Below, in pieces: positions 1 to 32,688 of a DNA stretch of 52,731 nt. The position numbers and the translations under genes were made by a program. The DNA comes from a virus (taxonomy: Duplodnaviria > Caudoviricetes), in IMG/VR virus record IMGVR_UViG_3300050343_000104, positions 1 to 52,731 of that record; one strand, written 5' to 3'. Below the pieces are notes generated by a model. It searched no databases, had not been told where the DNA came from, and saw nothing but the letters and a program-made list of their open reading frames with translations. Position 1 is the first letter of the stretch. Each line of letters begins with the position of its first letter.

Positions 1-248
1 GGAACCCAGCCAGCAACAGTATCTTCACCACAGTTAATAAATTTGTCAGTAACAAATTCACCCAGTGTATTTAATATTGCTACTTCAAAATGGCTATAGC
101 TTTCAGGTTCTAAGCCATTCTCATGGGGCGTAGAGTATAAACCATGACCTGCTTGTATACTTAGGGTTAATTTAGCTTTTGTGTTTAGCTTAGCTCCAAT
201 ACCGCCATGTAATTGCGGCACAAATTTTAAATCATTTACAGTTATCAT
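1..248 (-). CDS. hypothetical early protein (truncated by window edge)
   Basis: Hand translation from ATG at 248: MITVNDLKFVPQLHGGIGAK...FEVAILN...DTVAGWVP, open to position 1; not in the ORF track. Confidence 0.75.
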   Translation of the reverse strand, partial: MITVNDLKFVPQLHGGIGAKLNTKAKLTLSIQAGHGLYSTPHENGLEPESYSHFEVAILNTLGEFVTDKFINCGEDTVAGWV

Positions 249-307
249 ATCATTAATAGTATTAAGGTCATTATTATTATTATATTTAAAATTGAATATC
301 CGGTCAT
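245..307 (-). CDS. putative 20-aa hydrophobic micropeptide
   Basis: MTGYSILNIIIIMTLILLMI*, its TGA overlaps the next ATG (ATGA coupling). Confidence 0.4.
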   Translation of the reverse strand: MTGYSILNIIIIMTLILLMI

Positions 308-325
308 TAATTAAATCTTTTATAA

Positions 326-934
326 TTAATGGTAGATGAGTCCAATTTTGTGGTTGTCGGGACTGTACCATTTGGTTGCCCTAAGATCATACTCGCTGCT
401 ATCGTTATAGCCAGCACTGCTGAGATCACTAGCAGAGCTAAAAATTCTGGTGTGGCGGTCGTTCGTTTCATTTATTAAGTGTTTTTGTTTGCCTGAGTCA
501 CTGTATATAATATCATAGTTATCAGGTAGTTGTACTTCTTTAGTTAATTTTATCATGTTAGTGTAAGAATAGAACTTGACGTGAGGGTTGTGTATAGCAA
601 TTTGAATCCACTTATTTAAGTAAGCTCTACTATAATAATCGCCAGAGTCATGCACTCTTACAAAGTCGGGTTTCTTACGTCTGATCTCATCATTCATAGA
701 CTCAATAAATTTATCGGTCTTGCTCAACTCATATCGCTTTTCAAAAGCGGGTTGGACGTTAGACCAGATGTAAGCACCTTTCTTAGCATAACAGAACTTA
801 ACACACTCATCAGCCATAGGACAAGTAAGTTTACCTGATGCAGATTTATAAGCGGGTATACCGAAGTTCATTAGCTTAACGCCAAAGTGTTTACTAGTCT
901 TTTTGATTTTAGAATTTTGTGTAAGTAAGTTCAT
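326..934 (-). CDS. phage Gp88-like protein (radical-SAM-related, Cys cluster)
   Basis: NSKIKKT start, CPMADECVKFCYA Cys motif, FVRVHDSGDYYS and FYSYT motifs typical of the Gp88 family. Confidence 0.8.
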   Translation of the reverse strand: MNLLTQNSKIKKTSKHFGVKLMNFGIPAYKSASGKLTCPMADECVKFCYAKKGAYIWSNVQPAFEKRYELSKTDKFIESMNDEIRRKKPDFVRVHDSGDYYSRAYLNKWIQIAIHNPHVKFYSYTNMIKLTKEVQLPDNYDIIYSDSGKQKHLINETNDRHTRIFSSASDLSSAGYNDSSEYDLRATKWYSPDNHKIGLIYH

Positions 935-950
935 AGTTATTATTTTATAT

Positions 951-980
951 TATTATCTTAAGTTAAACGTATTTTGTCTG
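951..980 (-). promoter_or_regulatory. class E (early) promoter-like motif, copy 1
   Basis: Minus strand CAGACAAAATACG-N10-GATAATA, 16 nt before ATG 934. Confidence 0.8.
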
Positions 981-1223
981 TTAATCTAACAGAGTCATGT
1001 AAGCACTAGGGTTAGCCACACGAAACCAGTCAAGAGCTTTTCTAAAGTCTTTTTGTATTTCGTTACTCATTGGGATCATTTGACAACCGGTAATGAAATC
1101 ATATATTGATAATTCATTAGCATTCAGTGTTGCGCTTGAGCCGGAGAAAGGGTTAGATACATTACCGCCTTCAGTATATTGTGCGCCTCCTTTTTTTGTA
1201 AACCATTTTGGTAGATCTTTCAT
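981..1223 (-). CDS. hypothetical early protein
   Basis: 80-aa ORF tightly packed in the leftward array. Confidence 0.8.
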   Translation of the reverse strand: MKDLPKWFTKKGGAQYTEGGNVSNPFSGSSATLNANELSIYDFITGCQMIPMSNEIQKDFRKALDWFRVANPSAYMTLLD

Positions 1224-1224
1224 A

Positions 1225-1452
1225 TTATATTCTAGTAAATTTAAAGTTTAATGTTTTTAGTATTTTGTTAATAAATGCGCCAGCGGAAGGTGCTGCTCGT
1301 AGTCCTTCCCAAACAAATTTGGGTACGTCATAATACTCGTAACAGCTTGCGTTAGAGTACATTATAAATAATGTTCTAGATCGGTTGTAGTACGTCGCAT
1401 ATTGGATCGCACTAGATTCGACAATAAAGTCTTCTTTAATTATTTCACTCAT
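1225..1452 (-). CDS. KTSC domain protein
   Basis: ESSAI..ATY....RTLFI.Y.N...YEYYDVP..VWEGL.AAPSAG.FIN pattern. Confidence 0.8.
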   Translation of the reverse strand: MSEIIKEDFIVESSAIQYATYYNRSRTLFIMYSNASCYEYYDVPKFVWEGLRAAPSAGAFINKILKTLNFKFTRI

Positions 1453-1455
1453 AGG

Positions 1456-1938
1456 TTATTCGAATTGCGAAGCGCAGGTGTATAGCACTTCTTTGTTAGT
1501 ATTAGCACAGTGTGCTTTCTCATTAATATAATAGTTACGGTATGCAGCAACAGAATCGTTTTCAACTTTGTATTCATCAGGCATACATTGAGGCATGTCA
1601 GTAAGGCCAGTGTTAAAGATCGGGCCAGGTACTTGTGACAATACGTCACGACATTTAGTTATAGTAAGATGTTCTTTATTATAACGCTTTTTATATTCTT
1701 TGCCAAGAGCCATCATGTGAAAGTATAGCCAAGCATAGTTAGATCTTGATTGGCGTGTCCATACAGCAGATGGATGGTTTTTATGTGTTAACTTGTAAGG
1801 AACATCGATTTCACTGTCAAGCATTATATGTGCAGAACAAAGTAGTTGAGCGGACTCAAGGATCATTTTAACAACGTGCTTGTTGTATTGTAATTGTGCA
1901 GCACGTTCAGGGTCGGAGTTTAAATAAAATATATTCAT
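1456..1938 (-). CDS. pyrimidine-dimer DNA glycosylase / endonuclease V-like protein
   Basis: MNIFYL.SDP..AA....NKHVVKMILESAQLL, THKNHPSAVW, V.AYRNYY motifs of the phage DenV-like family. Confidence 0.75.
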   Translation of the reverse strand: MNIFYLNSDPERAAQLQYNKHVVKMILESAQLLCSAHIMLDSEIDVPYKLTHKNHPSAVWTRQSRSNYAWLYFHMMALGKEYKKRYNKEHLTITKCRDVLSQVPGPIFNTGLTDMPQCMPDEYKVENDSVAAYRNYYINEKAHCANTNKEVLYTCASQFE

Positions 1939-1943
1939 ACAGT

Positions 1944-1974
1944 TATTATCTTTAAGGTTACGTATTTAGTCTGC
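1944..1974 (-). promoter_or_regulatory. class E promoter-like motif, copy 2
   Basis: GCAGACTAAATACG-N10-GATAATA, only 5 nt before ATG 1938. Confidence 0.8.
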
Positions 1975-2514
1975 GATATTTAATTTCTCTATAGTGACAG
2001 TTATTTTATCTACCATTTTTTGATGTTTGTTTAATCCTTCATCAGTAAGTAATTGTTTGATTTCTTTAAGTAATTCAGGTACTTTAGATGGCCATTCATA
2101 GCCTTTGCTGTGGAATTCCATCTCGACATCAGCATATACATCTTCATATACTTTGTCACACATATCTTCAATAGCCTCGTCGATAATGCCCTCAGCATCA
2201 CAGTATATAGACAAACCGTTGCGTATAGCATCTTGTACTTCGTAAATGATTTGAGGAGAATGATCCTGGTAGAATATATCTTCATTCACGCATATTGAGT
2301 TAGGGTTATGTGTACATATCCATACAGAGTAGCCGTCACGTGTAGATTCTTCATACACATATAGATCTTGTTGTTCCCATCTATCGCTATAGCTTGCGCC
2401 GTAATGGTCTAGTACAAGCTGTGTGAATTCGCCGTTTTGTTCGCTAATTTGTTTTTCGCTAAAGCCAAGTTCGTGCATCGCTGCTTCAATTAATTCATCA
2501 GTTAATAGTTTCAT
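1966..2514 (-). CDS. acidic hypothetical early protein
   Basis: 182-aa ORF, TAACTATG start context. Confidence 0.8.
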   Translation of the reverse strand: MKLLTDELIEAAMHELGFSEKQISEQNGEFTQLVLDHYGASYSDRWEQQDLYVYEESTRDGYSVWICTHNPNSICVNEDIFYQDHSPQIIYEVQDAIRNGLSIYCDAEGIIDEAIEDMCDKVYEDVYADVEMEFHSKGYEWPSKVPELLKEIKQLLTDEGLNKHQKMVDKITVTIEKLNIAD

Positions 2515-2537
2515 AGTTATTATATTTAATTTTATTA

Positions 2538-2568
2538 TATTATCTTTTGTTTATCGTATTTTATCTGC
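2538..2568 (-). promoter_or_regulatory. class E promoter-like motif, copy 3
   Basis: GCAGATAAAATACG-N10-GATAATA. Confidence 0.8.
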
Positions 2569-2790
2569 AACTTGATCTAGTGCATCAAGTATATATTCGT
2601 AAATTTCTTTTTCACGTAGCTCACTGTCAAGTACCATTTCCATTTCGTCTTTAGTTACACCACCGTAGATACCAGTTTTTAACTGTTTTTTAGTATCTTC
2701 AACAGAAAACATAAGGTTTACCAGTTTGGCTTGGATCTTGTCGGTGGCCAACCAATGGGTATCAGGATTGATATTATTTTTTTCATTCAT
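2551..2790 (-). CDS. hypothetical early protein
   Basis: 79-aa ORF in array. Confidence 0.75.
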   Translation of the reverse strand: MNEKNNINPDTHWLATDKIQAKLVNLMFSVEDTKKQLKTGIYGGVTKDEMEMVLDSELREKEIYEYILDALDQVADKIR

Positions 2791-2794
2791 AGGT

Positions 2795-3067
2795 TTAGTT
2801 TAAGTTATTTAATTTATATTCACCAGATTCGATCTTAGCACGTGTTTCGTTGATACCTTCGCCATTTAAAAATAATCGTCTGTATTTACTTGTTGTATTA
2901 GAATAGTCCCAAGTATCTTCGTCTAATTGTATTTTACCGTGATATGGTTTGAATGCAATTATACTGCAATAACTTTGAAAGTATCTGCCGTCAGGTGTTG
3001 TAATTACAAATTGGTTAGGCACGTCGTTACCCGCATTACTTGTCATGTTTTTTACTTTGATTTTCAT
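2795..3067 (-). CDS. conserved phage hypothetical protein
   Basis: Likely start MKIKVKNMTS at 3067 (the longer track ORF runs into the tRNA-like element); VPNQFVI..FQSY.SIIA..WDYSNTTSKYRRLFL motifs. Confidence 0.75.
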   Translation of the reverse strand: MKIKVKNMTSNAGNDVPNQFVITTPDGRYFQSYCSIIAFKPYHGKIQLDEDTWDYSNTTSKYRRLFLNGEGINETRAKIESGEYKLNNLN

Positions 3068-3084
3068 ATTATATAGTTTAAAAT

Positions 3085-3155
3085 TAGTGGATAGTGAGGA
3101 ATCGAACCTCATACTCGTCAGCAGCACACCCGGTCGGGGCATCCATACCTATCCT
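3085..3155 (-). ncRNA. tRNA-like element (acceptor stem + T-arm, non-canonical D/anticodon region)
   Basis: Minus strand GGATAG...TGAGG-TTCGATT-CCTCA-CTATCC-A-CTA; perfect T-arm and 6-bp acceptor stem; 37-nt middle has no standard anticodon arm. Confidence 0.6.
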
Positions 3156-3412
3156 CCTCGTAGACATTTGCTAGCAGCTTAAAGAAAGCGCTCGGTTATT
3201 TATTCGCTACGATAATGTGTGGCTGGTTTCTTCTTAAGACATTTAATATACACTAATCCCAGTGAACACCACTTAATATTTTATGTACTACACAGCAATG
3301 TACATTGATCACATTTTCGCTGAACCACAAAGGGCTGTGAACTAACTAATAAATAATAAACTACAGGGTTATTTGCGTATAGCATACGCTGCCGCCCGGC
3401 CGCATTCAGTTA
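3156..3412 (-). ncRNA. putative structured RNA upstream of the tRNA-like element
   Basis: ORF-free ~260 nt with nested or adjacent stems: 3158-3163/3207-3212, 3214-3219/3310-3315, 3283-3288/3300-3305, 3320-3324/3405-3409, GCGTAT-AGC-ATACGC at 3375-3389. Confidence 0.4.
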
Positions 3413-3426
3413 AGAATTTTAATATT

Positions 3427-3618
3427 TTATTTTTCATCTTTTTCGTTTTCGGTTATTAATTTATTTACTCGTTCCATTCGGGTTTTTAAGTATTTTAAGT
3501 CGACTGGATCAATGTTATTATACTTTATAACGTCTTTATTGAGGTATTCAATTAAATGTTTAGTTGCATACATCATACAAATTAAGTTAGTATATTCTTT
3601 TGTTTTTAAGTTTATCAT
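3427..3618 (-). CDS. hypothetical early protein
   Basis: 63-aa ORF downstream of class E motif. Confidence 0.65.
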   Translation of the reverse strand: MINLKTKEYTNLICMMYATKHLIEYLNKDVIKYNNIDPVDLKYLKTRMERVNKLITENEKDEK

Positions 3619-3645
3619 AGTATTAAATTTTATTTGTTACACATT

Positions 3646-3676
3646 TATTATCTTGTAGAGTGCGTATTTTATCTGC
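3646..3676 (-). promoter_or_regulatory. class E promoter-like motif, copy 4
   Basis: GCAGATAAAATACG-N10-GATAATA. Confidence 0.8.
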
Positions 3677-3680
3677 AACT

Positions 3681-3872
3681 CTATAAATCTTTCTTGCGAA
3701 TCCAGGTTAAACCTTTATAGTTAAACCACTTGCGAACACCGTCATTATCATTGATCTCGTCGTATATATAGGCAAACTTGTTTGGTAGGTTAGCAAGATC
3801 GAAGCCAACGTGTAAGTCACCGTTTAATTTTAACTCTTTTTTAGTTCTTGAAAATTTTATAGTATTTGTCAT
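3681..3872 (-). CDS. hypothetical early protein
   Basis: Likely start MTNTIKF at 3872 (TAACTATG context) within track ORF 3681..3944. Confidence 0.7.
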   Translation of the reverse strand: MTNTIKFSRTKKELKLNGDLHVGFDLANLPNKFAYIYDEINDNDGVRKWFNYKGLTWIRKKDL

Positions 3873-3891
3873 AGTTATTAGTTTATTTGGT

Positions 3892-4233
3892 TTATAATTT
3901 ATCTCGTAAAATGTCAGAGAACGAAGTGCATACTCTACCCTCAATCATTTTTTCGGCTTCAGTGCGGACATCATTAAGTAATGTATTGTATTTACTTTCG
4001 CCATATAGTTTAAAGTATAGTTCTTTAAAGCCGCCGGATAAAACACGTTCGCCGTTTAAAAACCAATCGATTTCAGTGTCCATAGGATCGAAGGACCACT
4101 CAAGGTTGGGTTTTTCGGTTCTGAATACGTAACTATATACGGACACATGAGCGGTTATCAGCGAATCGACGTGTATAGCAACTTCAGCGTTGTAGGTAAA
4201 GGAAATGTTGTCAGTTAAGTGTGTAGTTTTCAT
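3892..4233 (-). CDS. hypothetical early protein
   Basis: 113-aa ORF, AAACTATG start. Confidence 0.75.
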   Translation of the reverse strand: MKTTHLTDNISFTYNAEVAIHVDSLITAHVSVYSYVFRTEKPNLEWSFDPMDTEIDWFLNGERVLSGGFKELYFKLYGESKYNTLLNDVRTEAEKMIEGRVCTSFSDILRDKL

Positions 4234-4236
4234 AGT

Positions 4237-4443
4237 TTATTTATTTAAAGTGTTAATTATATTTTTTATAGTTAATTCGGTTATACAATCTAGCATCTCA
4301 TAGTACTCATCGCCGTCTAGGTCGATGTTTAGATACTCTAGTTGATTGTTAATGGTGTCATACATTTGGTCTATAGTAACTTCAGCGATTTGTTGCGCTA
4401 AAATACCGGCATTGCTAGATAATTCTTGTTTAATAGTATTCAT
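4237..4443 (-). CDS. acidic hypothetical early protein
   Basis: 68-aa ORF, TAACTATG start. Confidence 0.75.
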   Translation of the reverse strand: MNTIKQELSSNAGILAQQIAEVTIDQMYDTINNQLEYLNIDLDGDEYYEMLDCITELTIKNIINTLNK

Positions 4444-4450
4444 AGTTATA

Positions 4451-4567
4451 TTAGTTGTAGTCGTTATATTCGTCCATTACATTAGACATTTGCTCTTTAG
4501 TTAGTGACCAATAGCTGATACCTGGGTATAGTCGGTCGGCGATTTTAAACATTTGTGTTGCGCTCAT
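4451..4567 (-). CDS. 38-aa early microprotein
   Basis: Hand translation MSATQMFKIADRLYPGISYWSLTKEQMSNVMDEYNDYN*, AAACTATG start, fills the gap after a promoter motif. Confidence 0.7.
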   Translation of the reverse strand: MSATQMFKIADRLYPGISYWSLTKEQMSNVMDEYNDYN

Positions 4568-4610
4568 AGTTTTATTAGTTTATAGTATTTATTATTATTA
4601 ATTTCACATT

Positions 4611-4642
4611 TATTATCTTTAGAGTTGCGTATTTATATCTGC
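4611..4642 (-). promoter_or_regulatory. class E promoter-like motif, copy 5 (one extra base)
   Basis: GCAGATATAAATACG-N10-GATAATA. Confidence 0.7.
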
Positions 4643-4644
4643 AA

Positions 4645-4977
4645 CTAGTATTTCGCTCTTATTTGGTCGGCACTACAATATGCCCACATTACTTTATTTA
4701 TAAATTCAACAGTGTTTACCGATTTTAACTCGATCGGAAAGGTGTATAGCATGGTTGCATAGAATTCCATTAGCCCTCGGTCATTCTCTGCATACTGTGA
4801 TTTGAATACATCATATTCGTCGCCTTGCATGAAATTCATACCGCATATTTTATTTTGTTCGTTATACTCTAGGTATATCCACCGATCTTGCGATTCACAC
4901 CAAAGGTGTTCTACTTTAATTACTTTAGATTCACACCAAATGTTTTCTGCTTTAATTACTTTATTATTTTTTTTCAT
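4645..4977 (-). CDS. hypothetical early protein with N-terminal 12-aa duplication
   Basis: 110-aa ORF, KVIKAENIWCES-KVIKVEHLWCES. Confidence 0.75.
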   Translation of the reverse strand: MKKNNKVIKAENIWCESKVIKVEHLWCESQDRWIYLEYNEQNKICGMNFMQGDEYDVFKSQYAENDRGLMEFYATMLYTFPIELKSVNTVEFINKVMWAYCSADQIRAKY

Positions 4978-5418
4978 AGTTTATTTAGTTCTTTAAATAG
5001 TGATTAGCTTAGGTTATAAGTGTCTTCGGTTATACAACCGTCTTGTTCAATAGCTTCAAGGTTGTCTATACCATGTGATCTAGTGCTACCAATATCACAT
5101 TCTTTTCGTAGTTACTTCACTGCATAGTTTATTTATTTTGACAGTTATTTAAGGTCGAAAGCGTATAGCAAACGTAGTCGATCGAGTTCATTATTATAGT
5201 AATGTCTCTAGTGTAATAGTAGTTACTACGTTTTGCATTATAATTAGTGCGTTTAACTTTAGTGTTAATTTGGTATAGTTTTACACCACGTCTTCTGAAG
5301 TATGGTATGATCTTTAGAGACTCACTCTAACATAACCGGATCTATAGGTGTAACCTAATCTACCGTCACTCATTTCACATTTAATTGTACCGTTTTTACT
5401 GATGTTTAATACTTTCAT
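4974..5418 (-). pseudogene. two small early genes with broken frames (starts 5418 MKVLNISKNGTIKCEMSDGR and 5125); probably sequencing indels
   Basis: Both have AACTATG start contexts and protein-like fragments in shifting frames. Confidence 0.5.
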
Positions 5419-5429
5419 AGTTATTTATT

Positions 5430-5606
5430 TTAGTTATATACTGTTTCTATTAGGTCGTGTACTAGATCTTCTTCAGACTCACCATCTTCTGGTATACAGT
5501 CAAGTTCTACAAATTCTTTAATTCTTTGTTCGATTTTTTCTCTACTTTCATAGTAAGACTCAAATTTAAAGTGGTCTACTGTGTCTTCATTCCAATTGTA
5601 CTTCAT
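5430..5606 (-). CDS. 58-aa acidic early microprotein
   Basis: MKYNWNEDTVDHFKFESYYESREKIEQRIKEFVELDCIPEDGESEEDLVHDLIETVYN*. Confidence 0.75.
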   Translation of the reverse strand: MKYNWNEDTVDHFKFESYYESREKIEQRIKEFVELDCIPEDGESEEDLVHDLIETVYN

Positions 5607-5642
5607 AGTTATTTATTTATTAGTTAATTTATTTATCACTTT

Positions 5643-5673
5643 TAATATCTTTTTATAGTCGTAATTTGTCTGC
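5643..5673 (-). promoter_or_regulatory. class E promoter-like motif, copy 6
   Basis: GCAGACAAATTACG-N10-GATATTA. Confidence 0.7.
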
Positions 5674-5678
5674 AACTC

Positions 5679-5721
5679 TATGACAACGTGTCGGTACACT
5701 ATGTCATGTCGAATTGTCATA
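5679..5721. promoter_or_regulatory. inverted repeat / TGTC cluster between divergent promoters (operator-like)
   Basis: TATGACAA(5679-5686)...TTGTCATA(5714-5721) with internal TGTCGG, TGTCAT, TGTCGA. Confidence 0.4.
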
Positions 5722-5752
5722 CCCTTTTTACTAAAATAATCTCTGATATTCA

Positions 5753-5781
5753 GTAGTTTTCACCAAAAACGTGTAATTATA
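5753..5781 (+). promoter_or_regulatory. class L (late) promoter-like motif, orphan copy with no downstream ORF
   Basis: GTAGTTTT-CACC-AAAAACGTGTAATTATA, same spacing as the three copies preceding late genes. Confidence 0.7.
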
Positions 5782-5784
5782 ATA

Positions 5785-5915
5785 GTATTTATAAAAACTC
5801 TTCTTTTAGTGTAATTTAGTTATATAGAGTTAACTTACTCACTGGTCTTATAGTGAGTCTCTGACTCTACTTTGTTAGTTTTACCTAACTAAATAGTATA
5901 TTTACACTTAAATAC
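5785..5915 (+). ncRNA. putative structured RNA (or DNA cruciform) directly downstream of the class L motif
   Basis: Five nested stems: 5785-5791/5909-5915, 5808-5814/5902-5908, 5815-5822/5886-5893, 5825-5832/5862-5869, 5837-5843/5852-5858. Confidence 0.55.
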
Positions 5916-5935
5916 CTTAGTGAGATCCGTTTTTA

Positions 5936-6094
5936 CTACATCGACCTAAATTCTTTATTGAAAAACCTAATTAGTTCGGTTGTAGTGAACTTCTTCCTCC
6001 ACTGAGTTGTCTGTTCGATCCAGTGGTACTCACCGCATTTCTCTACATTTCCGTCATTCATCCATTCTAACATTTCTTTAGTTACTTCATACAT
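5936..6094 (-). CDS. 52-aa early microprotein
   Basis: MYEVTKEMLEWMNDGNVEKCGEYHWIEQTTQWRKKFTTTELIRFFNKEFRSM*, TAACTATG start. Confidence 0.75.
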   Translation of the reverse strand: MYEVTKEMLEWMNDGNVEKCGEYHWIEQTTQWRKKFTTTELIRFFNKEFRSM

Positions 6095-6135
6095 AGTTAT
6101 TATATTTAATTATTAGTATTTTTTATATTCACTTA

Positions 6136-6166
6136 TATTATCTATTTAGGTGCGTGTTTCGTCTGC
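6136..6166 (-). promoter_or_regulatory. class E promoter-like motif, copy 7 (abuts 10-mer)
   Basis: GCAGACGAAACACG-N10-GATAATA. Confidence 0.75.
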
Positions 6167-6190
6167 GATGCTATACACAAACCGTCTGCA

Positions 6191-6250
6191 ATCGGTGAGA
6201 TTTGCCTACGGAACATAGGTATGCTATACACCCGTGGTAGATTCACCGAT
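6191..6250. other. long imperfect hairpin with the 10-mer in its loop
   Basis: ATCGGTGA(G)ATTTGCC(T)ACGG ... CCGT-GGTAGAT-TCACCGAT; G-T pairs occur on the + strand. Confidence 0.55.
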
Positions 6251-6279
6251 GTTTTGGTTAGTTAGCCGAAGCTATAAGC

Positions 6280-6597
6280 CTACTTTTTAGTAGACTTAGC
6301 TTCAGTTATAGTTGCCAGATGTCTGACAGTGCTCGGTAAGTTAGTACTTTGTGACCAGTACTTTCTTTTGATCCAGCAAGCCTGTAATTGTAGCTTAGGC
6401 AGCATTGCATTTAGTATTGTGTCATGACAGTACGTCACAGTTTGATTTTTATTGTTGATGAAAGTTATCTGTTGATTGCGGCCGAGCCAGCTTTCTCTTA
6501 CAACAAAGTTCTTTCTGGTTAGCGGTGGCCAGATCGCTGCTTTTTCTGAGTTAGACATAGTTTTTAGAGCTTTTTGCATTAATTCATTTGTAGTCAT
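6280..6597 (-). CDS. basic hypothetical early protein
   Basis: 105-aa ORF; followed by a TAGC-TTCG-GCTA tetraloop hairpin (6263-6274, minus strand). Confidence 0.8.
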   Translation of the reverse strand: MTTNELMQKALKTMSNSEKAAIWPPLTRKNFVVRESWLGRNQQITFINNKNQTVTYCHDTILNAMLPKLQLQACWIKRKYWSQSTNLPSTVRHLATITEAKSTKK

Positions 6598-6652
6598 AAT
6601 TTTAAATTTTAAGTTATTATTATTATTATTAGTTATTTACTTTATTCACTTA

Positions 6653-6683
6653 TATTATCATAAACACAACGTATTCCGTCTGC
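6653..6683 (-). promoter_or_regulatory. class E promoter-like motif, copy 8 (abuts 10-mer)
   Basis: GCAGACGGAATACG-N10-GATAATA. Confidence 0.8.
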
Positions 6684-6802
6684 AATGCTATACACAGATC
6701 CAGCTGTAAAAATGCTATATGCTATACACGCCGGACCCCGGCTGGTTACCTCCGAGGTCAATTAGCTGAGATCATCCCATCTCACACCAGGATCCGTGTG
6801 CT

Positions 6803-6955
6803 TTAGACTGACGCCCAGAACAGATCTTGCTGCTCTGGACTTAAGCCCTTTAGATTATCCTGCCCGAACATATCTTGGCAGATTTGTGTGCGTCTGATAG
6901 ACTCGTCATACTTTGCTGAGATCCTGTCCCAGGCTTGTGAATTTGTTTCGTACAT
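6803..6955 (-). CDS. 50-aa early microprotein
   Basis: MYETNSQAWDRISAKYDESIRRTQICQDMFGQDNLKGLSPEQQDLFWASV*. Confidence 0.7.
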   Translation of the reverse strand: MYETNSQAWDRISAKYDESIRRTQICQDMFGQDNLKGLSPEQQDLFWASV

Positions 6956-6957
6956 AA

Positions 6958-7062
6958 TTAATTGATTTGTGTTAGTGAGTTAAGGTATTCGACAGCCAGT
7001 GCCAGTTCATAGTCGTAGTTCAGTGCCTGAGTGTACAGGTATTCTTCATTATAGTTTTCCAT
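6958..7062 (-). CDS. 34-aa acidic early microprotein
   Basis: MENYNEEYLYTQALNYDYELALAVEYLNSLTQIN*. Confidence 0.65.
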   Translation of the reverse strand: MENYNEEYLYTQALNYDYELALAVEYLNSLTQIN

Positions 7063-7063
7063 T

Positions 7064-7141
7064 TTAGTTTCGTATTGCGGCAGCTGCAGCTGATCCCAGG
7101 TTAGACATTACTTCATTCATTTTAATTAAGATTGCTTTCAT
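7064..7141 (-). CDS. 25-aa early microprotein
   Basis: MKAILIKMNEVMSNLGSAAAAAIRN*, first ORF after the outermost class E motif. Confidence 0.6.
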   Translation of the reverse strand: MKAILIKMNEVMSNLGSAAAAAIRN

Positions 7142-7181
7142 AAGATTTAATTTAATTATTATTATTATTTATATTCAACTA

Positions 7182-7212
7182 TATTATCTAGTGAACAACG
7201 TAAACCGTCTGC
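7182..7212 (-). promoter_or_regulatory. class E promoter-like motif, copy 9 (abuts 10-mer)
   Basis: GCAGACGGTTTACG-N10-GATAATA. Confidence 0.75.
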
Positions 7213-7225
7213 AAATGCTATACGC

Positions 7226-7245
7226 GCTACGCTGCGCTGCGCTGC
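7226..7245. repeat. 4 x GCTRC tandem repeat
   Basis: GCTAC-GCTGC-GCTGC-GCTGC. Confidence 0.7.
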
Positions 7246-7446
7246 TATAATACGTAGCAATCCAATAGCCAGAAGCAAAGTGCTAAATACCCTGGATAAA
7301 ATGCCTGGCAAAAGGCAAAAGTTATTTACTAAACCCTAAAACAAAAGGGGGACTGGGTAAAATGAATTGCGTTTTCTGTAGGAAAAAGTTTTTTTAAATA
7401 AGCATGTAGCCCTATACCTCTTATTATATAATAATGGTTTTTACCT

Positions 7447-7475
7447 GTAGCTTTCGGAAAAAACGTGTAATTATA
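7447..7475 (+). promoter_or_regulatory. class L promoter-like motif heading the late block
   Basis: GTAGCTTT-CGGA-AAAAACGTGTAATTATA, 26 nt before ATG 7502. Confidence 0.8.
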
Positions 7476-7501
7476 TATAACCATATAATAGAATGTAACG
7501 G

Positions 7502-7801
7502 ATGGCTTCAAAACAAAAATTATCGCCTGTGGCTAGAAAAGCAAAAGCGAAGAGAGACCTAGCTTATGCTAAGACGGCGGATAGACGTAAAAAGAAAGCA
7601 CATGCACAGAGAGAAAGGCGTAGAGCTAAACGTAGCGGGAAAAATGTTGATGGGCTAGATTGGGATCATAAAGATGGGCGATGGGAAAAGATTTCACGTA
7701 ATAGGGCTAATGACGGAGAGGGGACTAAAAAAGAAGGCAAAAAGAAATATAAGGTACCGAAGCGCAAGCGAAGGGCTAAAACTAAAAAGAAAAAGAAATG
7801 A
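7502..7801 (+). CDS. very basic protein with HNH-like core
   Basis: K/R-rich; DGLDWDHKDG...ISRNRA resembles compact phage HNH proteins. Confidence 0.6.
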   Translation: MASKQKLSPVARKAKAKRDLAYAKTADRRKKKAHAQRERRRAKRSGKNVDGLDWDHKDGRWEKISRNRANDGEGTKKEGKKKYKVPKRKRRAKTKKKKK

Positions 7802-10800
7802 GTATTATAACTACGTACCCCCTTATTGGGGATGTTGCCCCTGCTGATTTACTGATCATTGCGGACATGAGTATTTTAGGTACCCCTACTAGAACTGTTA
7901 GTATTCAACAGCTCGTAGATGAGATGGGAGGAAGCTACTCCTGGTTTGTAGGAGGTGTCGGCGGTTTTGAAGTAACAGCCAGTGAAACTGTAACATTTAC
8001 GGGAGGTATTAAATTAACTGCTGTAAATAATTCAGGAAATCAATCGGTTACATTTAATCACGATAATACTAGTAGAACAGATACTACCTCAGCTGTTACA
8101 CCTGGATCAGGAGGAACATTTACGGTTATTGACTCTATTGTACAAGACGCTACTGGACATACAACTTTAGTTAATACTAAAACAGTTACGATGCCTTCGG
8201 GCGGTGGCGGTAATGTTATTAGTGTTGGCTTGTCTGCTCCTTCGGCTTTTACGGTAAGTAACAGTCCTGTTACTACTAGTGGCACTTTAACTTTTACGGG
8301 AGCTGGCACTACGGCGCAATTTATAGACGGCACGGGATCTTTGCAAGCCATTTCTTCTATACCCGGTGGGGTATCTCAAATTGTTGCGGGACAAAATGTA
8401 ACAATATCGCCTGTGGGCGGTACGGGTGTTGTAACTATTAATGCTAGCGGAGGAGGCGGTGGTGGCACTGTAACCAGTGTGGACGCTAGTACTGGGGGAG
8501 ACGCTTTGGATGTATTTGTTTCTGATCCTACAACTACGCCGGATTTAGCATTTACATGGGCAGGAACTAACGGACAGTATGTTAACGGGGAAGGAAACTT
8601 AATAGATCTTCCAGCTACGGCTACAACCTATAATTTAGATGCTGACCAGGACGGATTAAATGTGGACCTTAATTTAACACCCTCTGTAGGTATCGCCGAT
8701 GTCGTTAAGCTTACAGCAGGTACGGGTATAGCCTTAACCGAAACTGGTAATAATAATATTACAATTGCAACTAGTGGAAATACTGGGTTGACCTCGGTGG
8801 GGGCTAGCAGTAATTACTTAACTATAAGCAACTCCCCACTTACAAGCAACGGTGTTATTCAAGTGAATATGCCTGCTAATGGGGTTACTGTAGGAACTTA
8901 TACCAATGCTACTGTAGAGGTAGATCAATATGGGTTTGTTACTAATGTTTCTAGTGGCTCTGTAATACCTAATAATATAGTAGAAACTATAACCACAACA
9001 GACGGGCAGTTTATTGAGCTAACTCCTAACTCTCCTACATCGGGGGCCGTAGCTGTTACCGCAGATCTTTCTGCTACCGGTACACCTAGTTCTACCACGT
9101 TCCTTAGAGGAGATAATACGTGGGCGGTGCCATCAGGAGGTGGAGGTGGCGGTACTATGAGTAGCTGGATAGCTGGAGACGGAAGCAACACTCAAACTAT
9201 AACAGACGGTGACCAAGTTAATTTTAATGCTACTACTAAACTGTCATCAAGTATTTCTCTTGTAGCTGGGGTGGTAGAATTAAATTTCAGCCATGACTCA
9301 ACTTCTCGTAGTGATACCACAAGTACGTATTCTTTAGGATCAGGAGGGTCGTTTACTAAAGTAGATAGTGTAACTACTGATTCTACGGGACATATAACCG
9401 CTATAAATTTAGAAACGGTTAACATAGACTCTTTTGATAATTATGGTTCCTGGACATTATCTGGAGACGGCGGACAAAATCAAGTAATCTTCGGAGGGAA
9501 CACGGTTGATATAATTGGTGGATCAAAAATCGCTACAGTCTCTTCGAATACAAACATTCTTACAATAGACCATGATAGTACAACTAGATCGGATACTTCT
9601 TCTAGCGTTTCACCCGTAGCGGGCGGAACCTTTACTGTAGTAGATAGCATAACTCAAGATGTTACAGGTCATATAACGGCTACAAATCTTAAGACAGTAA
9701 CGTTGCCCTCAGCGGGAGGCAGCATGAGTCAATGGTTTGTAGATGACGGTGGATCACAATTTTTTTCCGTGCAAAACAACGATAGTGTTTTTATTAACGG
9801 TACCGCTAAGATTGATGTTACGGCCTCAGCCGCAAATAAATCGGTTACATGGACACATACTAACACAAATAGGAATGATACAACTTCAGCGGTTACTCCA
9901 GGTAGTGGCGGAACTTTTACTGTAGTAGATTCTATAACACAAGATGCTACGGGACACCCAACAGCAATAAATGTTAAAACTGTTACGATGCCTACTACCG
10001 GAGGTGGAGGAGGTGCAACTTATGATTTAACATCGGCACAGGATGGCAATAATGTTGATATAAAACTAACCCCCTCAACGGGAGCTGTAGATATAGTACA
10101 ATTAACAGCAGGAACAGGAGTGACTTTAGCGGATAATGGGTTTAATAGTATAACCATTAGTGCTAGCGGGGCAAATTCCGTAAATGAAACGACTCCAGGA
10201 ACATCATCAGGGATTCCTATAGAGGTTAACCCCACTACAGGTAATGTACTAGTTAAGTCAATGGCTTACGCAGGAACAAATAATGTAGGACATGTTCCAG
10301 CAGGAGGTAATGCAACCACCTTTTTGCGGGGAGATGGTAGCTGGCAAACCCCGAGCAATACCGAGTATCTTGCAGGAACAGGAATGACACTGCAAGGAAA
10401 TATATTTAAGGCTAATGTTAGCGGGACTCTTCAGTCAGTTGCTCCACAAACCGTCACAGGAACTAGCGCTAGAACTTATGCAGTTCAAGTCGACGGATCA
10501 AACGATTTAGTAGTTAATGTACCCTGGACTGGAGGCTCGCCAAGGGGAGCAGGTGTTGGTTTAACACTTAACGGTAATAACATAGACGCTAATGTAGCAG
10601 GTCTTCAACTAATAGCGGCTAACGCGGTGACTAATAATGGGCAAAGAACTTATCAAGTTCAAGTCGATGCCTCTGATAACTTAGTGGTAAATGTACCGTG
10701 GACGGACACAGGCGGATCAGTAACTTCTGTGGCAGCTGCTATTAATGGTAATGCTTATGTGGCTTCGGTAAATAACCCTACAACAACCCCCTCAATAGCA

Positions 10801-12060
10801 ATAGTGCCCCAAGGAAATTCCACTAAATACATTAACGGAGCTGGAAATTTGGCTGATATATCAACACTCCCAGCAGGTGTAACTTCTATAACTCCTGCCG
10901 CGACTACAGGTAGTGGTACTCCTATAACAAGTGTGGGTAATATTACGTTTACAGGAGCTGGAGGTATTACAACCTCAGTTAATGCTGCTAATGTAGTTAC
11001 TATCACCGGATCAGGAGGAGGCGGCGGTGGAGGATGGGCTCCCTCGCAGGGTGGAACCTTCGCTAATGCTGATATCTATAACGTAAACTGGAATAATGCA
11101 GGCGCTACGGCTAGGACGGTAGTAATAGGCGATGACCAAATGTCTTCAGATCAGTACGCGGCTCTGGAAGTACATGGTAGAATTTCAGTTGTGGACGTAT
11201 CTGGTAACATATTTATTGGGCATGAATCCGGAAAAGATTCTACTGGCTCTAATAACACTGCTGTTGGTGACGGAGCCCTTTTTAAGAATACTACTGGAAT
11301 GACTAATACAGCTGTGGGTACGCAAGCTTTACAACAAAATCTTACAGGAGGAGCGAATACAGCGGTAGGATTTCTAGCGTGTAGAGTAAACATGACAGGT
11401 ACTGAAAACACGGCTGTCGGGAGTGGTTCTATGCTTGTTAATACGTCAGGTAACCGTAATACTTCCATAGGACAAGGGACTATGCAATATTTATTGCAGC
11501 ATGATAATAATACTGCAGTAGGTTGTGATTCTCTTCTTCGAAATCAAATTCACACTAATACCGCGGTAGGAGCTGAATCTGGAAGCTTTATTGTATACGG
11601 TAGAAACAATGTGTTTCTGGGTTATCAAGCTGGGAATGATACTGTAGGTACGGGATCTTTAGACGATGGTAATGAAAATGTATTTATAGGAGTTCGTTCG
11701 GGTTTGAACGCAGACGAGGCCCAAGGGTGTATTTATATAGGCTATGAAACAGAGAAAAAATTTGGTACACCAGCGGGTCAAATTGTAAGTAATGAAACAG
11801 TTATAGGACATAAAGCTTCTGGTCAGGGAAGGAATACTGTCGTATTAGGAAACGACGATGTTGAAAGAACCTATTTAAAAGGAATTGTATTATTAGATGG
11901 ATATACATTTGCCTCTCTACCGGTACACCCACAAACTGTAGTAGGCATGAGAACTTATATAACTGATGGAGCTAACCCCACTTATGGCGGAATTGCGTCG
12001 GGGGGCGGAAGCAGCACTCTCCCCGTATTTTATGACGGTACCAACTGGATTTACGCATAA
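7798..12060 (+). CDS. long tail fibre / receptor-binding protein
   Basis: 1420 aa, G/T/S-rich, poly-Gly hinges, FLRGD motifs, repeated HD.TSR.DTTS...GGTFTV.DSI.QD.TGH units, C-terminal NTAVG beta-roll repeats, ends PVFYDGTNW. Confidence 0.85.
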   Translation: MSIITTYPLIGDVAPADLLIIADMSILGTPTRTVSIQQLVDEMGGSYSWFVGGVGGFEVTASETVTFTGGIKLTAVNNSGNQSVTFNHDNTSRTDTTSAVTPGSGGTFTVIDSIVQDATGHTTLVNTKTVTMPSGGGGNVISVGLSAPSAFTVSNSPVTTSGTLTFTGAGTTAQFIDGTGSLQAISSIPGGVSQIVAGQNVTISPVGGTGVVTINASGGGGGGTVTSVDASTGGDALDVFVSDPTTTPDLAFTWAGTNGQYVNGEGNLIDLPATATTYNLDADQDGLNVDLNLTPSVGIADVVKLTAGTGIALTETGNNNITIATSGNTGLTSVGASSNYLTISNSPLTSNGVIQVNMPANGVTVGTYTNATVEVDQYGFVTNVSSGSVIPNNIVETITTTDGQFIELTPNSPTSGAVAVTADLSATGTPSSTTFLRGDNTWAVPSGGGGGGTMSSWIAGDGSNTQTITDGDQVNFNATTKLSSSISLVAGVVELNFSHDSTSRSDTTSTYSLGSGGSFTKVDSVTTDSTGHITAINLETVNIDSFDNYGSWTLSGDGGQNQVIFGGNTVDIIGGSKIATVSSNTNILTIDHDSTTRSDTSSSVSPVAGGTFTVVDSITQDVTGHITATNLKTVTLPSAGGSMSQWFVDDGGSQFFSVQNNDSVFINGTAKIDVTASAANKSVTWTHTNTNRNDTTSAVTPGSGGTFTVVDSITQDATGHPTAINVKTVTMPTTGGGGGATYDLTSAQDGNNVDIKLTPSTGAVDIVQLTAGTGVTLADNGFNSITISASGANSVNETTPGTSSGIPIEVNPTTGNVLVKSMAYAGTNNVGHVPAGGNATTFLRGDGSWQTPSNTEYLAGTGMTLQGNIFKANVSGTLQSVAPQTVTGTSARTYAVQVDGSNDLVVNVPWTGGSPRGAGVGLTLNGNNIDANVAGLQLIAANAVTNNGQRTYQVQVDASDNLVVNVPWTDTGGSVTSVAAAINGNAYVASVNNPTTTPSIAIVPQGNSTKYINGAGNLADISTLPAGVTSITPAATTGSGTPITSVGNITFTGAGGITTSVNAANVVTITGSGGGGGGGWAPSQGGTFANADIYNVNWNNAGATARTVVIGDDQMSSDQYAALEVHGRISVVDVSGNIFIGHESGKDSTGSNNTAVGDGALFKNTTGMTNTAVGTQALQQNLTGGANTAVGFLACRVNMTGTENTAVGSGSMLVNTSGNRNTSIGQGTMQYLLQHDNNTAVGCDSLLRNQIHTNTAVGAESGSFIVYGRNNVFLGYQAGNDTVGTGSLDDGNENVFIGVRSGLNADEAQGCIYIGYETEKKFGTPAGQIVSNETVIGHKASGQGRNTVVLGNDDVERTYLKGIVLLDGYTFASLPVHPQTVVGMRTYITDGANPTYGGIASGGGSSTLPVFYDGTNWIYA

Positions 12061-12075
12061 TATAAAAACAAACTA

Positions 12076-13584
12076 ATGAGTATATTAACTACATATCCTG
12101 GAATTACAAACGTATCTGGTGAAGATCTATTAGTAATATCTGACATGAGCTTACCTGGAACACCCACGCGTTCTGTTACTGTTAATCAGTTAATAGCAGG
12201 TGGTGGAGGCGGAGTCTTAAGTGTTAATGCAAATGCTGACGGAAATGCAATTGTAGTATCAGGAGGACCTATTACTTCAATTGGAACCCTACAATTTGGG
12301 TTTACGGGTCTTAGTAGCCAATACATAAACGGTCAAGGTAATTTAGCTAATTTTCCACCAGTGGGTTCGGGAACAGTAACAGATGTGTCTTACTCAACTA
12401 ATATAGCAGCATTTACCGCTGGGGTCATAAATGCAACCACTACTCCATCTTTAACATTAAATCTAAATGGAGGAAGTACCGGTCAATTCTTAAGACAAGA
12501 CGGAACTTGGGCTACAGTACCCACGGGAAGCGGAACCGTAGAAAGCGTAGGATTATCAACTAATATTGCGGCTTTTCAGGTTGTTAACAGCCCAATAACA
12601 GGAATAGGTGTACTAGAAATAAATTTAAACGGTGGGAGCACCGGGCAGTTTTTAAGACAGGACGGAACCTGGGCTACAATACCGGGAGGTAATCCAGGGA
12701 CTGTTACAGAGGTTGGGGTTTCTAGTAACTACTTAACAATAGGTAACACACCTATTACATCAAATGGTACTATATCAGTAAATGTACCTGTCCAATCTAA
12801 TTTAACCGCAGGGGCTTACACTAATGCTAATATTACCGTAGATCAATATGGATTTGTTACGGCTGCGGCAAATGGCAGTGGCGGCGGCGGCGGTGTATCG
12901 CAAATTGTTGCGGGTACCAATATAACTATAAGCCCCCCGGCAGGAACCGGAGTGGTAACTATAAATTCGACTGATCAATTTGTAGGAACTGTTACATCTG
13001 TTACAGGACAAGACGGAATAGTTATGACAGGTACAGCTAGTAATCCTGAAGTAAATGTAGATTATTTAGGAACTGATAATTATATACTTACAGCAGCTAA
13101 TCCAGATCCCCTAGTTCCCGTCAGTAGGGAAGATAGCATGAACTTCAGCACAGTGCGTATCACAAAGCAAATTTATCATACTACATTAGCAGATATAATA
13201 GATACGGGTAATGGCTATAAAATGACGGCATTTAGACTAAATGTAGCTTCTGCTGGAGCAACGCCTACAATAACAATGATAAATAATAATATAGGGGGCG
13301 CCTGGTCAATTACTAGAATAGGGGTTGGGGTATATGATATTTCAAATTCTAATGGCACTATTTTTACAGATAAAACAATTTGTTATATAAATAACCCAAA
13401 CGTAACGGGAGCATCGGGGGCAACCACTAATGTATTCCCACAAGCTACTAACATACGGCGCAAAGCAGTTAGTCTAATAGCTATCGAATGCTTTGAGGTA
13501 GGAACTACTACAGGCAACAGAGGGGATGTTGCTGATCTTGGGACCGCAAATCCTATATATGTAGAAATAAAAATTTACGATTAA
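12076..13584 (+). CDS. tail fibre protein, paralogous N-terminus to 7798 ORF
   Basis: MSILTTYP...DLLVISDMSLPGTPTRSV; 2x STNIAAF...NLNGGSTGQFLRQDGTWAT. Confidence 0.8.
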   Translation: MSILTTYPGITNVSGEDLLVISDMSLPGTPTRSVTVNQLIAGGGGGVLSVNANADGNAIVVSGGPITSIGTLQFGFTGLSSQYINGQGNLANFPPVGSGTVTDVSYSTNIAAFTAGVINATTTPSLTLNLNGGSTGQFLRQDGTWATVPTGSGTVESVGLSTNIAAFQVVNSPITGIGVLEINLNGGSTGQFLRQDGTWATIPGGNPGTVTEVGVSSNYLTIGNTPITSNGTISVNVPVQSNLTAGAYTNANITVDQYGFVTAAANGSGGGGGVSQIVAGTNITISPPAGTGVVTINSTDQFVGTVTSVTGQDGIVMTGTASNPEVNVDYLGTDNYILTAANPDPLVPVSREDSMNFSTVRITKQIYHTTLADIIDTGNGYKMTAFRLNVASAGATPTITMINNNIGGAWSITRIGVGVYDISNSNGTIFTDKTICYINNPNVTGASGATTNVFPQATNIRRKAVSLIAIECFEVGTTTGNRGDVADLGTANPIYVEIKIYD

Positions 13585-16959: not shown

Positions 16960-16988
16960 GTAGTTTTTTTAAATTACGTGTGATTATA
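16960..16988 (+). promoter_or_regulatory. class L promoter-like motif upstream of groEL
   Basis: GTAGTTTT-TTTA-AATTACGTGTGATTATA, 17 nt before ATG 17006. Confidence 0.75.
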
Positions 16989-32660: not shown

Positions 32661-32688
32661 TAGTTTTTTAAAAAAACACGTAATTATA
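32660..32688 (+). promoter_or_regulatory. class L promoter-like motif upstream of tail genes
   Basis: GTAGTTTT-TTAA-AAAAACACGTAATTATA. Confidence 0.75.

Follow-up and report, generated by a model that had tools for sequence, protein, structure and literature searches.

The window analysed here is the whole of an IMG/VR virus record (IMGVR_UViG_3300050343_000104; Duplodnaviria, Caudoviricetes), a linear DNA of 52,731 bp with an estimated completeness of 84%; all positions are counted from its first letter. Small minus-strand open reading frames (ORFs) occupy 1–7311, and from 7502 there follows a long plus-strand block of structural and packaging genes. We examined one copy of a promoter-like motif at 5753–5781 (+), which lies inside the minus-strand early block and points in the opposite direction, together with the non-coding element behind it (5782–5935, +; GC content 0.27), which begins where the motif ends and is bounded on its far side by the stop codon of a convergent 52-aa gene.

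The motif belongs to a 29-nt class, termed class L (GTAGYTTT-N7-..RYGTRATTATA), with four copies in the window, all on the plus strand (5753–5781, 7447–7475, 16960–16988 and 32660–32688). A preliminary description, drawn by a model from the letters of this window, had taken class L for a real promoter-like class, and the counts bear this out: four matches were found where 0.01 were expected, and 0/100 shuffled sequences reached four. Three of the copies stand 18–72 nt ahead of ORF starts (ATG) at 7502, 17006 and 32760. The regular copy at 7447–7475 (+) lies 27 nt ahead of the 99-aa gene that opens the structural block; the protein made from this gene was used to gather 80 related viral loci (24 closest, 56 more distant), and the motif was found 54–78 nt ahead of the gene in 22/22 of the close relatives with upstream sequence (24 closest loci), and was missing from the 56 more distant loci. 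Several distant relatives (L152, L157, L162, L175, L192) carry instead, 40–100 nt ahead of the 99-aa gene, an inverted repeat GACG..TAGGTAGTTATATATAATAGTA..GGCTA.CGTC and, downstream of it, CGTAATCATA about 20 nt ahead of the start codon; this upstream region probably serves these phages as the divergent control region.

The fourth copy, GTAGTTTTCACCAAAAACGTGTAATTATA at 5753–5781, matches the 29-nt pattern with 0 mismatches and is 86% identical to the copy at 7447, with which it shares extra similarity over about 30 nt upstream of the motif. Its flanking ORFs (5430–5606, 5936–6094 and 6280–6597) are all on the minus strand, and behind 5781 all six frames are closed by stops, the longest stop-free run being 15–27 codons across the 102 variants of the element described below. 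Since the other three copies precede ATG starts, the description of this copy as an orphan holds. In a relative estimated as 98% complete there are five copies, four of which face the next gene while the fifth is again the orphan. The motif thus always faces the following gene, on either strand, the orphan excepted.

The early block is put together, as a mosaic, from small cassettes that each carry a promoter motif of their own, in a layout resembling the promoter-stem-loop cassettes of T4-like phages. This early-class motif, of about 45 nt (TTGCAGAY-N5-TACG-N11-GATAATAWAAGTG), has 9–10 minus-strand copies within 930–7215 (first base of GCAGAY at 7212, 6683, 6189, 6166, 5673, 4642, 3676, 2568 and 1974, with a weaker copy near 985), each 30–45 nt ahead of a small minus-strand ORF. 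It gave no match to an E. coli-type consensus, and it is also unlike what we take to be the Bacteroidota -33/-7 consensus. The copy belonging to the next early unit (TTGCAGAC...GATATTAAAAGTG; 5625–5677, -) lies about 80 bp from the orphan motif, the two standing back to back. On the other side, a plus-strand transcript started at the orphan would cross antisense the early genes of 5936–7311 (-), namely the 52-aa gene (5936–6094), the 105-aa gene (6280–6597) and smaller ORFs, with the early-class motifs at 6166/6189, 6683 and 7212.

Conservation behind the orphan motif

When 5700–5960 was used as a blastn query, the element was recovered from 8/80 loci (7 whole, 1 cut by the contig start), and these eight are precisely the close relatives whose upstream sequence exceeds 2.1 kb (8/8). 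In the relatives a distance of 2.1–2.9 kb, occupied by minus-strand genes, separates the motif and element from the 99-aa gene downstream, and the DNA identity of the element (70–87%) is level with that of the flanking coding sequence. For a larger sample, a pattern was built from three blocks that are invariant in the eight relatives, and it retrieved 7 viral stretches and at least 118 metagenome stretches. From all loci 132 copies were cut (3 more were truncated by contig ends, and a false positive, L322, was dropped), and after trimming to 185 nt these gave 102 distinct sequences among the matches listed, which were aligned (alignment A2). The pattern forces GTAATTATAWTA, AGTGTA and CTWATAG to be invariant in the 102 variants and leaves the other positions free. 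The upstream half of the motif, (G)TAGYWTY, falls outside the search pattern and was present in 102/102 variants, and the full motif stood at a fixed distance and orientation to the element in 102/102. The variants form four lineages of 28, 10, 59 and 5 members, which are 60–73% identical to one another over the element; the window belongs to the lineage of 28. A profile of the element without its promoter (nhmmer) found one copy per genome, recognisable over profile positions 2–150, and none behind the other motif copies. Taken together with the compensatory changes given in the next section, these comparisons support the view that the stretch behind the orphan motif is a conserved non-coding element under selection. 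A search of 5500–6200 on both strands against the 4227 families of Rfam returned 0 matches at E<=1.

Within the element, an AGTGTA box (5808–5813, +) lies 35–37 nt downstream of the first base of GTAATTATA, and all lineages keep its distance fixed; the box is invariant in the eight protein-anchored relatives, and in the 102 variants its invariance is forced by the pattern. Its complement, TACACT, occurs downstream at four alignment positions in different lineages (84/102 variants, compared with 10–30% in shuffles). Overlapping the box, GTGTAATT at 5809–5816 is an exact repeat of the motif's own 5771–5778, about 23 nt into the putative transcript. At the far end, just outside the stop codon of the convergent gene, the alignments show a 3' box, AGTGAGATCC, followed by a T-run (5919–5934, +; T-run 5930–5934); the T-run is missing in several lineages and has no stem directly ahead of it. 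The tetranucleotide TAGT occurs seven times on the plus strand of 5782–5935 where 0.9 are expected, always as WTAGT, and 5–9 times in all 102 variants; its complement, ACTA, is also enriched in the larger lineages because several stems are built on TAGT/ACTA. A 12-nt direct repeat, CCNTTTTTACTA (5722–5733 and 5927–5938, 11/12 identical), brackets the motif and element; it is absent from the alignments of the relatives and was therefore set aside as probably due to chance.

The rod and the family-wide fold

The preliminary description had proposed that the orphan motif fires into a 130-nt rod of five nested helices, and had located the helices correctly, beginning 4 nt after the end of the motif (5781). 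All five were found in the letters of the plus strand: H1, GTATTTA 5785–5791 with TAAATAC 5909–5915; H2, AGTGTAA 5808–5814 with TTACACT 5902–5908; H3, TTTAGTTA 5815–5822 with TAACTAAA 5886–5893; H4, TAGAGTTA 5825–5832 with TGACTCTA 5862–5869, including one G-U pair; and H5, ACTCACT 5837–5843 with AGTGAGT 5852–5858. The minimum free energy (MFE) fold from RNAfold contains four of the five, H3 being replaced by a small local hairpin. The shuffle controls called for in that description gave a fold modestly better than chance (5785–5915: -27.2 kcal/mol, z -2.16, 6/200 shuffles as good; 5785–5918: -28.0, z -2.90, 1/200), and the reverse strand folded equally well (z -2.42, 3/200). Because the z-scores are modest and the two strands alike, the stability of the rod is modestly above the level set by its AT content and is uninformative as to the strand.

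As an entity conserved across the family the rod was not upheld. Its 37 pairs were formed in 61.9% of cells (one pair in one sequence) in the eight protein-anchored sequences, compared with 60.7% in shuffles, 62/500 of which reached the observed value; over the 102 variants the figures were 64.8% and 61.6%, the former owing much to the window's own lineage. The five-helix rod (5785–5915, +) is the consensus fold only of that 28-member lineage and is not kept in the other 74 variants. Within the lineage H1, H2 and H4 are kept in 28/28 and hardly vary (one H2 pair is G-C in 22 and G-U in 6), the outer H3 pairs are broken in 8–11/28, and the second H5 pair is broken in 11/28; no double compensatory change was found in the rod within these 28 variants. 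Stem positions do vary less than unpaired ones (7/74 compared with 15/57; Fisher p 0.017), and on this ground the rod may well be the real fold of the window's lineage.

The homologue search and covariation analysis, which the preliminary description had also called for, thus yielded homologues and compensatory changes, and the latter fall outside the rod, in a smaller structure. Helix A pairs AAAACT (5794–5799, +) with AGTTTT (5877–5882, +); 611/612 cells are Watson-Crick in the 102 variants, the third pair being A-U in 38 and U-A in 64, and in the largest lineage the helix reaches nine pairs. Inside it lies hairpin C (AGTGAGTC-tct-GACTC-t-ACT; 5852–5871, +), with 5 + 3 pairs and a bulged T5868, which was the sole helix kept by RNAalifold on all 102 sequences, on either strand. 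Three of its pairs covary (CG in 92 and GC in 10; GC in 38 and UA in 64; UA in 57 and AU in 34, unpaired in 11), and each of the three double changes divides the family in a different way; the remaining five core pairs do not vary. A consensus of helix A, hairpin C and a variable 3' hairpin was paired in 87.8% of cells compared with 80.1% in shuffles (0/500 reached it) and 33–40% when slid, with the reservation that it was derived from the same 102 sequences on which it was scored and that the shuffle test ignores kinship. Enforcing helix A and hairpin C cost a mean of 0.6 kcal/mol in the 59-member lineage, where they are essentially the MFE fold, and 2.7–2.8 kcal/mol in two small lineages. 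The family apparently shares a core of junction type, a three-way junction as in the phi29 packaging RNA (pRNA), which the modelled folds suggest was remodelled into the rod in the window's lineage. More generally, prediction from one genome can yield a fold that is specific to its lineage while the conserved core is a different, smaller structure.

A putative late antisense transcript and its rivals

What might read class L was judged from the relatives, since the record is cut about where they carry the gene concerned. A Sigma70_r2 match was found in 4/4 larger relatives, two of them over the cut-off; the ORF concerned, of 254 aa, has regions 2 and 4 (TIGR02937, 51.1 bits against a cut-off of 42.9) and also matches PHROG 351, 'RNA polymerase sigma factor'. 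In relative G002 (locus L331) the sigma gene (1069–1833, -; 53567–54331 in the G002 record) is followed by a minus-strand copy of the motif and then by a gene for an ERF recombinase, and by synteny its position is just past the left end of the window; in the 98%-complete relative the distances from the minus-strand copy are 20 nt back to the sigma gene and 37 nt on to the ERF gene. The motif class thus serves replication and recombination genes as well as structural ones. The sigma-70-family factor of the relatives and the motif before their ERF gene suggest that class L is a post-early promoter dependent on such a factor. A DFDxD-type motif, as in virion or single-subunit RNA polymerases, was absent from 10 large ORFs, and a search for PF00940 in four relatives gave no match, its positive controls being silent too.

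Our preferred reading, to which we give a probability of roughly 0.4, is that the orphan motif makes a late non-coding transcript with a structured leader, running antisense into three early transcription units. From sequence comparison we infer the identity of the promoter, its dependence on sigma, the start site, the strand and length of the RNA and its shut-off function. Host core RNA polymerase carrying the phage-encoded sigma-70-family factor would read class L after the early phase; once sigma had been made, the orphan copy would start a non-coding plus-strand RNA at about 5787, the first 150 nt or so of which would form a structured leader, with helix A closing around hairpin C and the variable hairpin (in the window's lineage, refolded into the rod). 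The RNA would then run head-on through the three early units (5936–7311) toward the late operon at 7447, and its predicted effect is reduced expression of the early genes at late times, since it would collide with the promoters of these genes and base-pair with their mRNAs; the role of the leader would be to make the transcript more stable, to pause it or to equip it in some other way. Searches for signals that would end such an RNA gave no conserved plus-strand terminator in the antisense stretch, the sole candidate (6521–6541) not being kept in the relatives; within the element a scan for intrinsic terminators flagged 5855–5867 with the tail TACTTTGTTA, the tail in the largest lineage is ACACTACTCT, and there is no conserved U-run. 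With respect to the late non-coding RNA of the preliminary description, a promoter-like motif, the lack of a gene behind it and a conserved non-coding element all stand, and the rod as the conserved entity does not; from the conserved promoter and the gene-free stretch, the locus probably makes a regulatory RNA.

RNA libraries were searched for traces of the locus. Six runs hold small shares of 5600–6700, and assembled contigs from four of them cover parts of 3000–8000, the element included (X15 record 3, 5733–5940; X18 record 17, 5857–5940), while an 855-nt contig from a divergent relative reaches from the 105-aa gene as far as the next early unit; being assembled, these contigs carry neither strand, ends nor level, and they are as compatible with a plus-strand RNA as with its absence.

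Several observations weigh against the antisense reading. X15 record 3 extends more than 31 letters to either side of the proposed start, so that at least some of the library content crosses it; minus-strand read-through or DNA in the library would fit this as well as any other source. The window itself has no sigma gene, the record ending about where the relatives carry it. The element profile found no homologue in the more distant relatives, and a crude search for -10-like blocks in 18 distant loci showed no obvious orphan promoter. The covariation rests on only 3–4 independent double changes, hairpin C is a palindrome that folds on either strand, and the consensus was scored on its own source sequences. 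The fold also differs between lineages: enforcing helix A and hairpin C in the window's lineage cost a mean of 12.3 kcal/mol (7.2–16.7), because a segment upstream of hairpin C complements both of its arms and draws the hairpin into the rod. Finally, a plain antisense role leaves the conservation of the first 150 nt unexplained; the leader may serve to make the RNA more stable, to give rise to a small RNA through processing, or to influence the polymerase.

The second of these roles leads to a different reading, unlikely in our estimate, in which the same promoter makes a discrete late RNA of about 150 nt that is ended or processed near 5930 and acts in trans on a protein or RNA. The confinement of the recognisable element to profile positions 2–150, its compact structure, the conserved 3' box and T-run (5919–5934) that close it in many variants, and the abundance of TAGT (7 in the window, 5–9 in the variants) would all suit a small RNA. 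The T-run, however, lacks a directly preceding stem and is missing in several lineages, conservation past 5935 cannot be judged because the other strand codes there, and Rfam offered no match. Pairing of the leader with start regions was also negative: duplex energies with 16 early and 16 late start regions were no better than those of shuffled leaders (14/40 as good for early and 25/40 for late), and a trans-acting RNA directed at start sites was rejected.

We consider it quite unlikely that the element serves the minus strand, as a terminator, insulator or stabiliser at the 3' end of the early 52-aa unit, with the plus-strand motif being incidental or a decoy. It does lie exactly between the stop of that unit (5936) and the next unit's promoter motif (5673), the minus strand folds as well as the plus strand, and an RNA-library contig crosses the putative plus-strand start. 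Such a role is nevertheless hard to square with the other early-unit junctions, which have no such element (there is one copy per genome), with the complete motif attached at a fixed distance and orientation in 102/102 variants, and with the absence of a U-run after hairpin C on the minus strand. Wobble pairs weakly favour the plus sense (G-U in H2 in 6/28 of the window's lineage); in the three consensus helices there are 65 G-U against 5 A-C, nearly all from one doubtful pair of hairpin D.

A site acting as DNA, either an origin activated by transcription or a protein site on the palindrome with the motif as activator or second binding site, appears distinctly improbable. Origins composed of a promoter and an AT-rich region are known in T7 (the primary origin) and T4 (ori(uvsY)/ori(34)), and the element is the lowest-GC spot of the area (0.26 over 5785–5915 and 0.27 over the whole element, compared with 0.36 for the window), though in a genome this rich in AT such a criterion carries little weight. 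As DNA, hairpin C forms a perfect palindrome, which is retained on both strands, and the cumulative GC skew has its minimum at 5–7 kb, but this minimum coincides with the switch in gene orientation and is thus not independent. No iterons were found. The change in helix A and the three symmetric changes in hairpin C, seen among close relatives, fit single-strand folding better than a co-evolving protein, and contig ends are spread evenly around the element, with no pile-up among the 118 metagenome stretches listed. This even spread also speaks against a genome terminus at the element, and the T7-like end processing suggested in the preliminary description found no support.

An antitermination role for the leader is about equally hard to credit. 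Parallels are offered by the phage lambda late promoter PR', with its short non-coding 6S transcript and sigma-dependent promoter-proximal pause, and by the HK022 put RNA. At the present locus a late promoter is likewise followed by a gene-free leader, with GTGTAATT as a -10-like repeat at 5771 and 5809, and the polymerase could be altered for long-range elongation by a nascent RNA with structure. In a Q-less or put-like scheme the leader would be a device acting in cis, as RNA or DNA, and found at this promoter only; the GTGTAATT repeat (about +23) would hold the sigma-bound polymerase, and helix A and hairpin C, folding on the nascent RNA, would convert it for an untranslated, head-on run of 1.7–2.9 kb across the early genes. 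The likeness is an analogy only; unlike the lambda and HK022 systems, there is here no Q- or Nun-type factor and no identified terminator. If true, Bacteroidota phages would possess an antitermination module, put-like or Q-less, that a phage sigma factor drives. Equally compatible with these observations is a new late structured RNA whose partner is a protein of the host or of the phage.

That the orphan is a functionless relic, a duplicated promoter stranded when early cassettes were inserted before the late operon, would account for the similarity of the 5753 and 7447 copies some 30 nt further upstream and would suit the mosaic of cassettes with their own promoter motifs, yet it is hardly credible for an element kept at a fixed position in four lineages only 60–73% identical, with invariant blocks and compensatory changes, and with stems that vary less than loops in the window's lineage. 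The remaining proposals of the preliminary description fared no better: nothing supports a replication primer; the 6S-like reading found no Rfam 6S match and depends on a rod with a central bubble that is not conserved; and for a phi29-type packaging RNA there is no Rfam pRNA match, while the phage has an ordinary large terminase and a portal.

The phage, its precedents and significance

In the plus-strand block the large terminase gene lies at 25326 (PHROG 6681, 4.7e-102) and the gene for a P22-like portal at 26658, with those for several virion proteins. The nearest deposited phages by terminase are an uncultured Caudoviricetes record (65% identity), the Flavobacterium phages vB_FspP_elemo (49%), and then Cellulophaga, Tenacibaculum and Maribacter phages; on account of these neighbours we presume an uncultured marine podophage, distant kin of Flavobacterium and Cellulophaga phages, with a host among the Flavobacteriia. 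The element pattern gave five matches in genome collections, of which two were true copies on contigs of metagenome-assembled genomes (1.1–1.3 kb) and three were due to chance; there was no usable host signal, the binning of contigs of about 1 kb being uninformative on the host. A DNA search of the phage collection with 5300–6700 gave no match, and the 105-aa early protein gave none in the phage collection and no usable one in the protein atlas; therefore, at the level of DNA or of this protein, no cultured relative has the locus. A scan of viral contigs with a 15-base exact motif gave scattered single matches only and was unhelpful for finding relatives. A tRNA/tmRNA search of the window was negative, and searches of one collection of papers found none on promoters, transcription signals or non-coding RNAs of this phage group.

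Some other genes of the window deserve mention. Behind the motif copy at 16960, a 304-aa protein (17468–18382, +) matches the chaperonin family Cpn60_TCP1 (8.5e-19, profile positions 141–409) and is thus a GroEL-like fragment in a podophage. In the early block, 1456–1938 (-) matches a pyrimidine-dimer DNA glycosylase (Pfam Pyr_excise, 24.4 bits against a cut-off of 23; PHROG 624), and 326–934 (-) a GP88-family domain (Pfam, 1.7e-37). Over 7798–13584 (+) a 1420-aa protein and the next, of 502 aa, have internal and mutual DNA repeats (174-nt, 79-nt and 56–59-nt families, 61–78% identical) and glycine-rich GGAGGNGG stretches, which suggests modular proteins resembling tail fibres.

The nearest precedent, by analogy, appears to be the antisense promoter for phage RNA polymerase in phiKMV-like phages. 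In LUZ19, ONT-cappable-seq (cappable-seq on the Oxford Nanopore Technologies platform) mapped a phage-specific promoter in the early region that faces against all genes; another 15 Phikmvvirus species conserve it, and in the authors' proposal it blocks transcription into the early genes (PMC10914365). The present locus shares with this promoter (P001) a post-early class of the phage's own, a place in the early region directed against the genes, the lack of an ORF, and conservation of sequence and position. It differs in that the LUZ19 promoter is read by a single-subunit phage RNA polymerase, whereas here host polymerase and a phage sigma factor presumably act; in that LUZ19 is of an unrelated phage lineage and host phylum; in that the LUZ19 transcript was mapped while the present one is predicted from DNA; and in the conserved structured leader of about 150 nt, a feature of the present phage. 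Seven late promoters of Bacillus phage AR9 drive antisense transcription, mostly late in infection (PMC5312081), and PAK_P4 makes antisense RNAs early, against structural genes (PMC5563952), the reverse of the present arrangement. These phages, with PAK_P3, have in common with ours promoters of one temporal class that drive RNAs antisense to genes of another; their polymerases and motifs are different, and the available text of the reports describes no conserved structured leader. Bacterial 6S RNA and the phi29 pRNA resemble the element in size (about 130–180 nt) and in the pairing of the ends, as in the rod of the window or the closing helix of the family, but here there is no Rfam match, the rod is not conserved, and the phage has a normal large terminase and a P22-like portal.

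An antisense promoter of a phage class is thus of a known kind, and the conserved RNA or DNA motif attached to it is undescribed; set beside the available text on LUZ19 and AR9, the conserved structured leader of 150 nt is what is new. To our knowledge, the transcription programmes of marine Bacteroidota phages are almost unstudied. Three linked, testable predictions follow for this abundant uncultured lineage: that its promoters come in two classes, the second of them read by a phage sigma factor; that a conserved promoter in antisense orientation shuts off a particular group of early genes; and that there is a new structured RNA motif, for which some hundred natural variants are available to comparative study.

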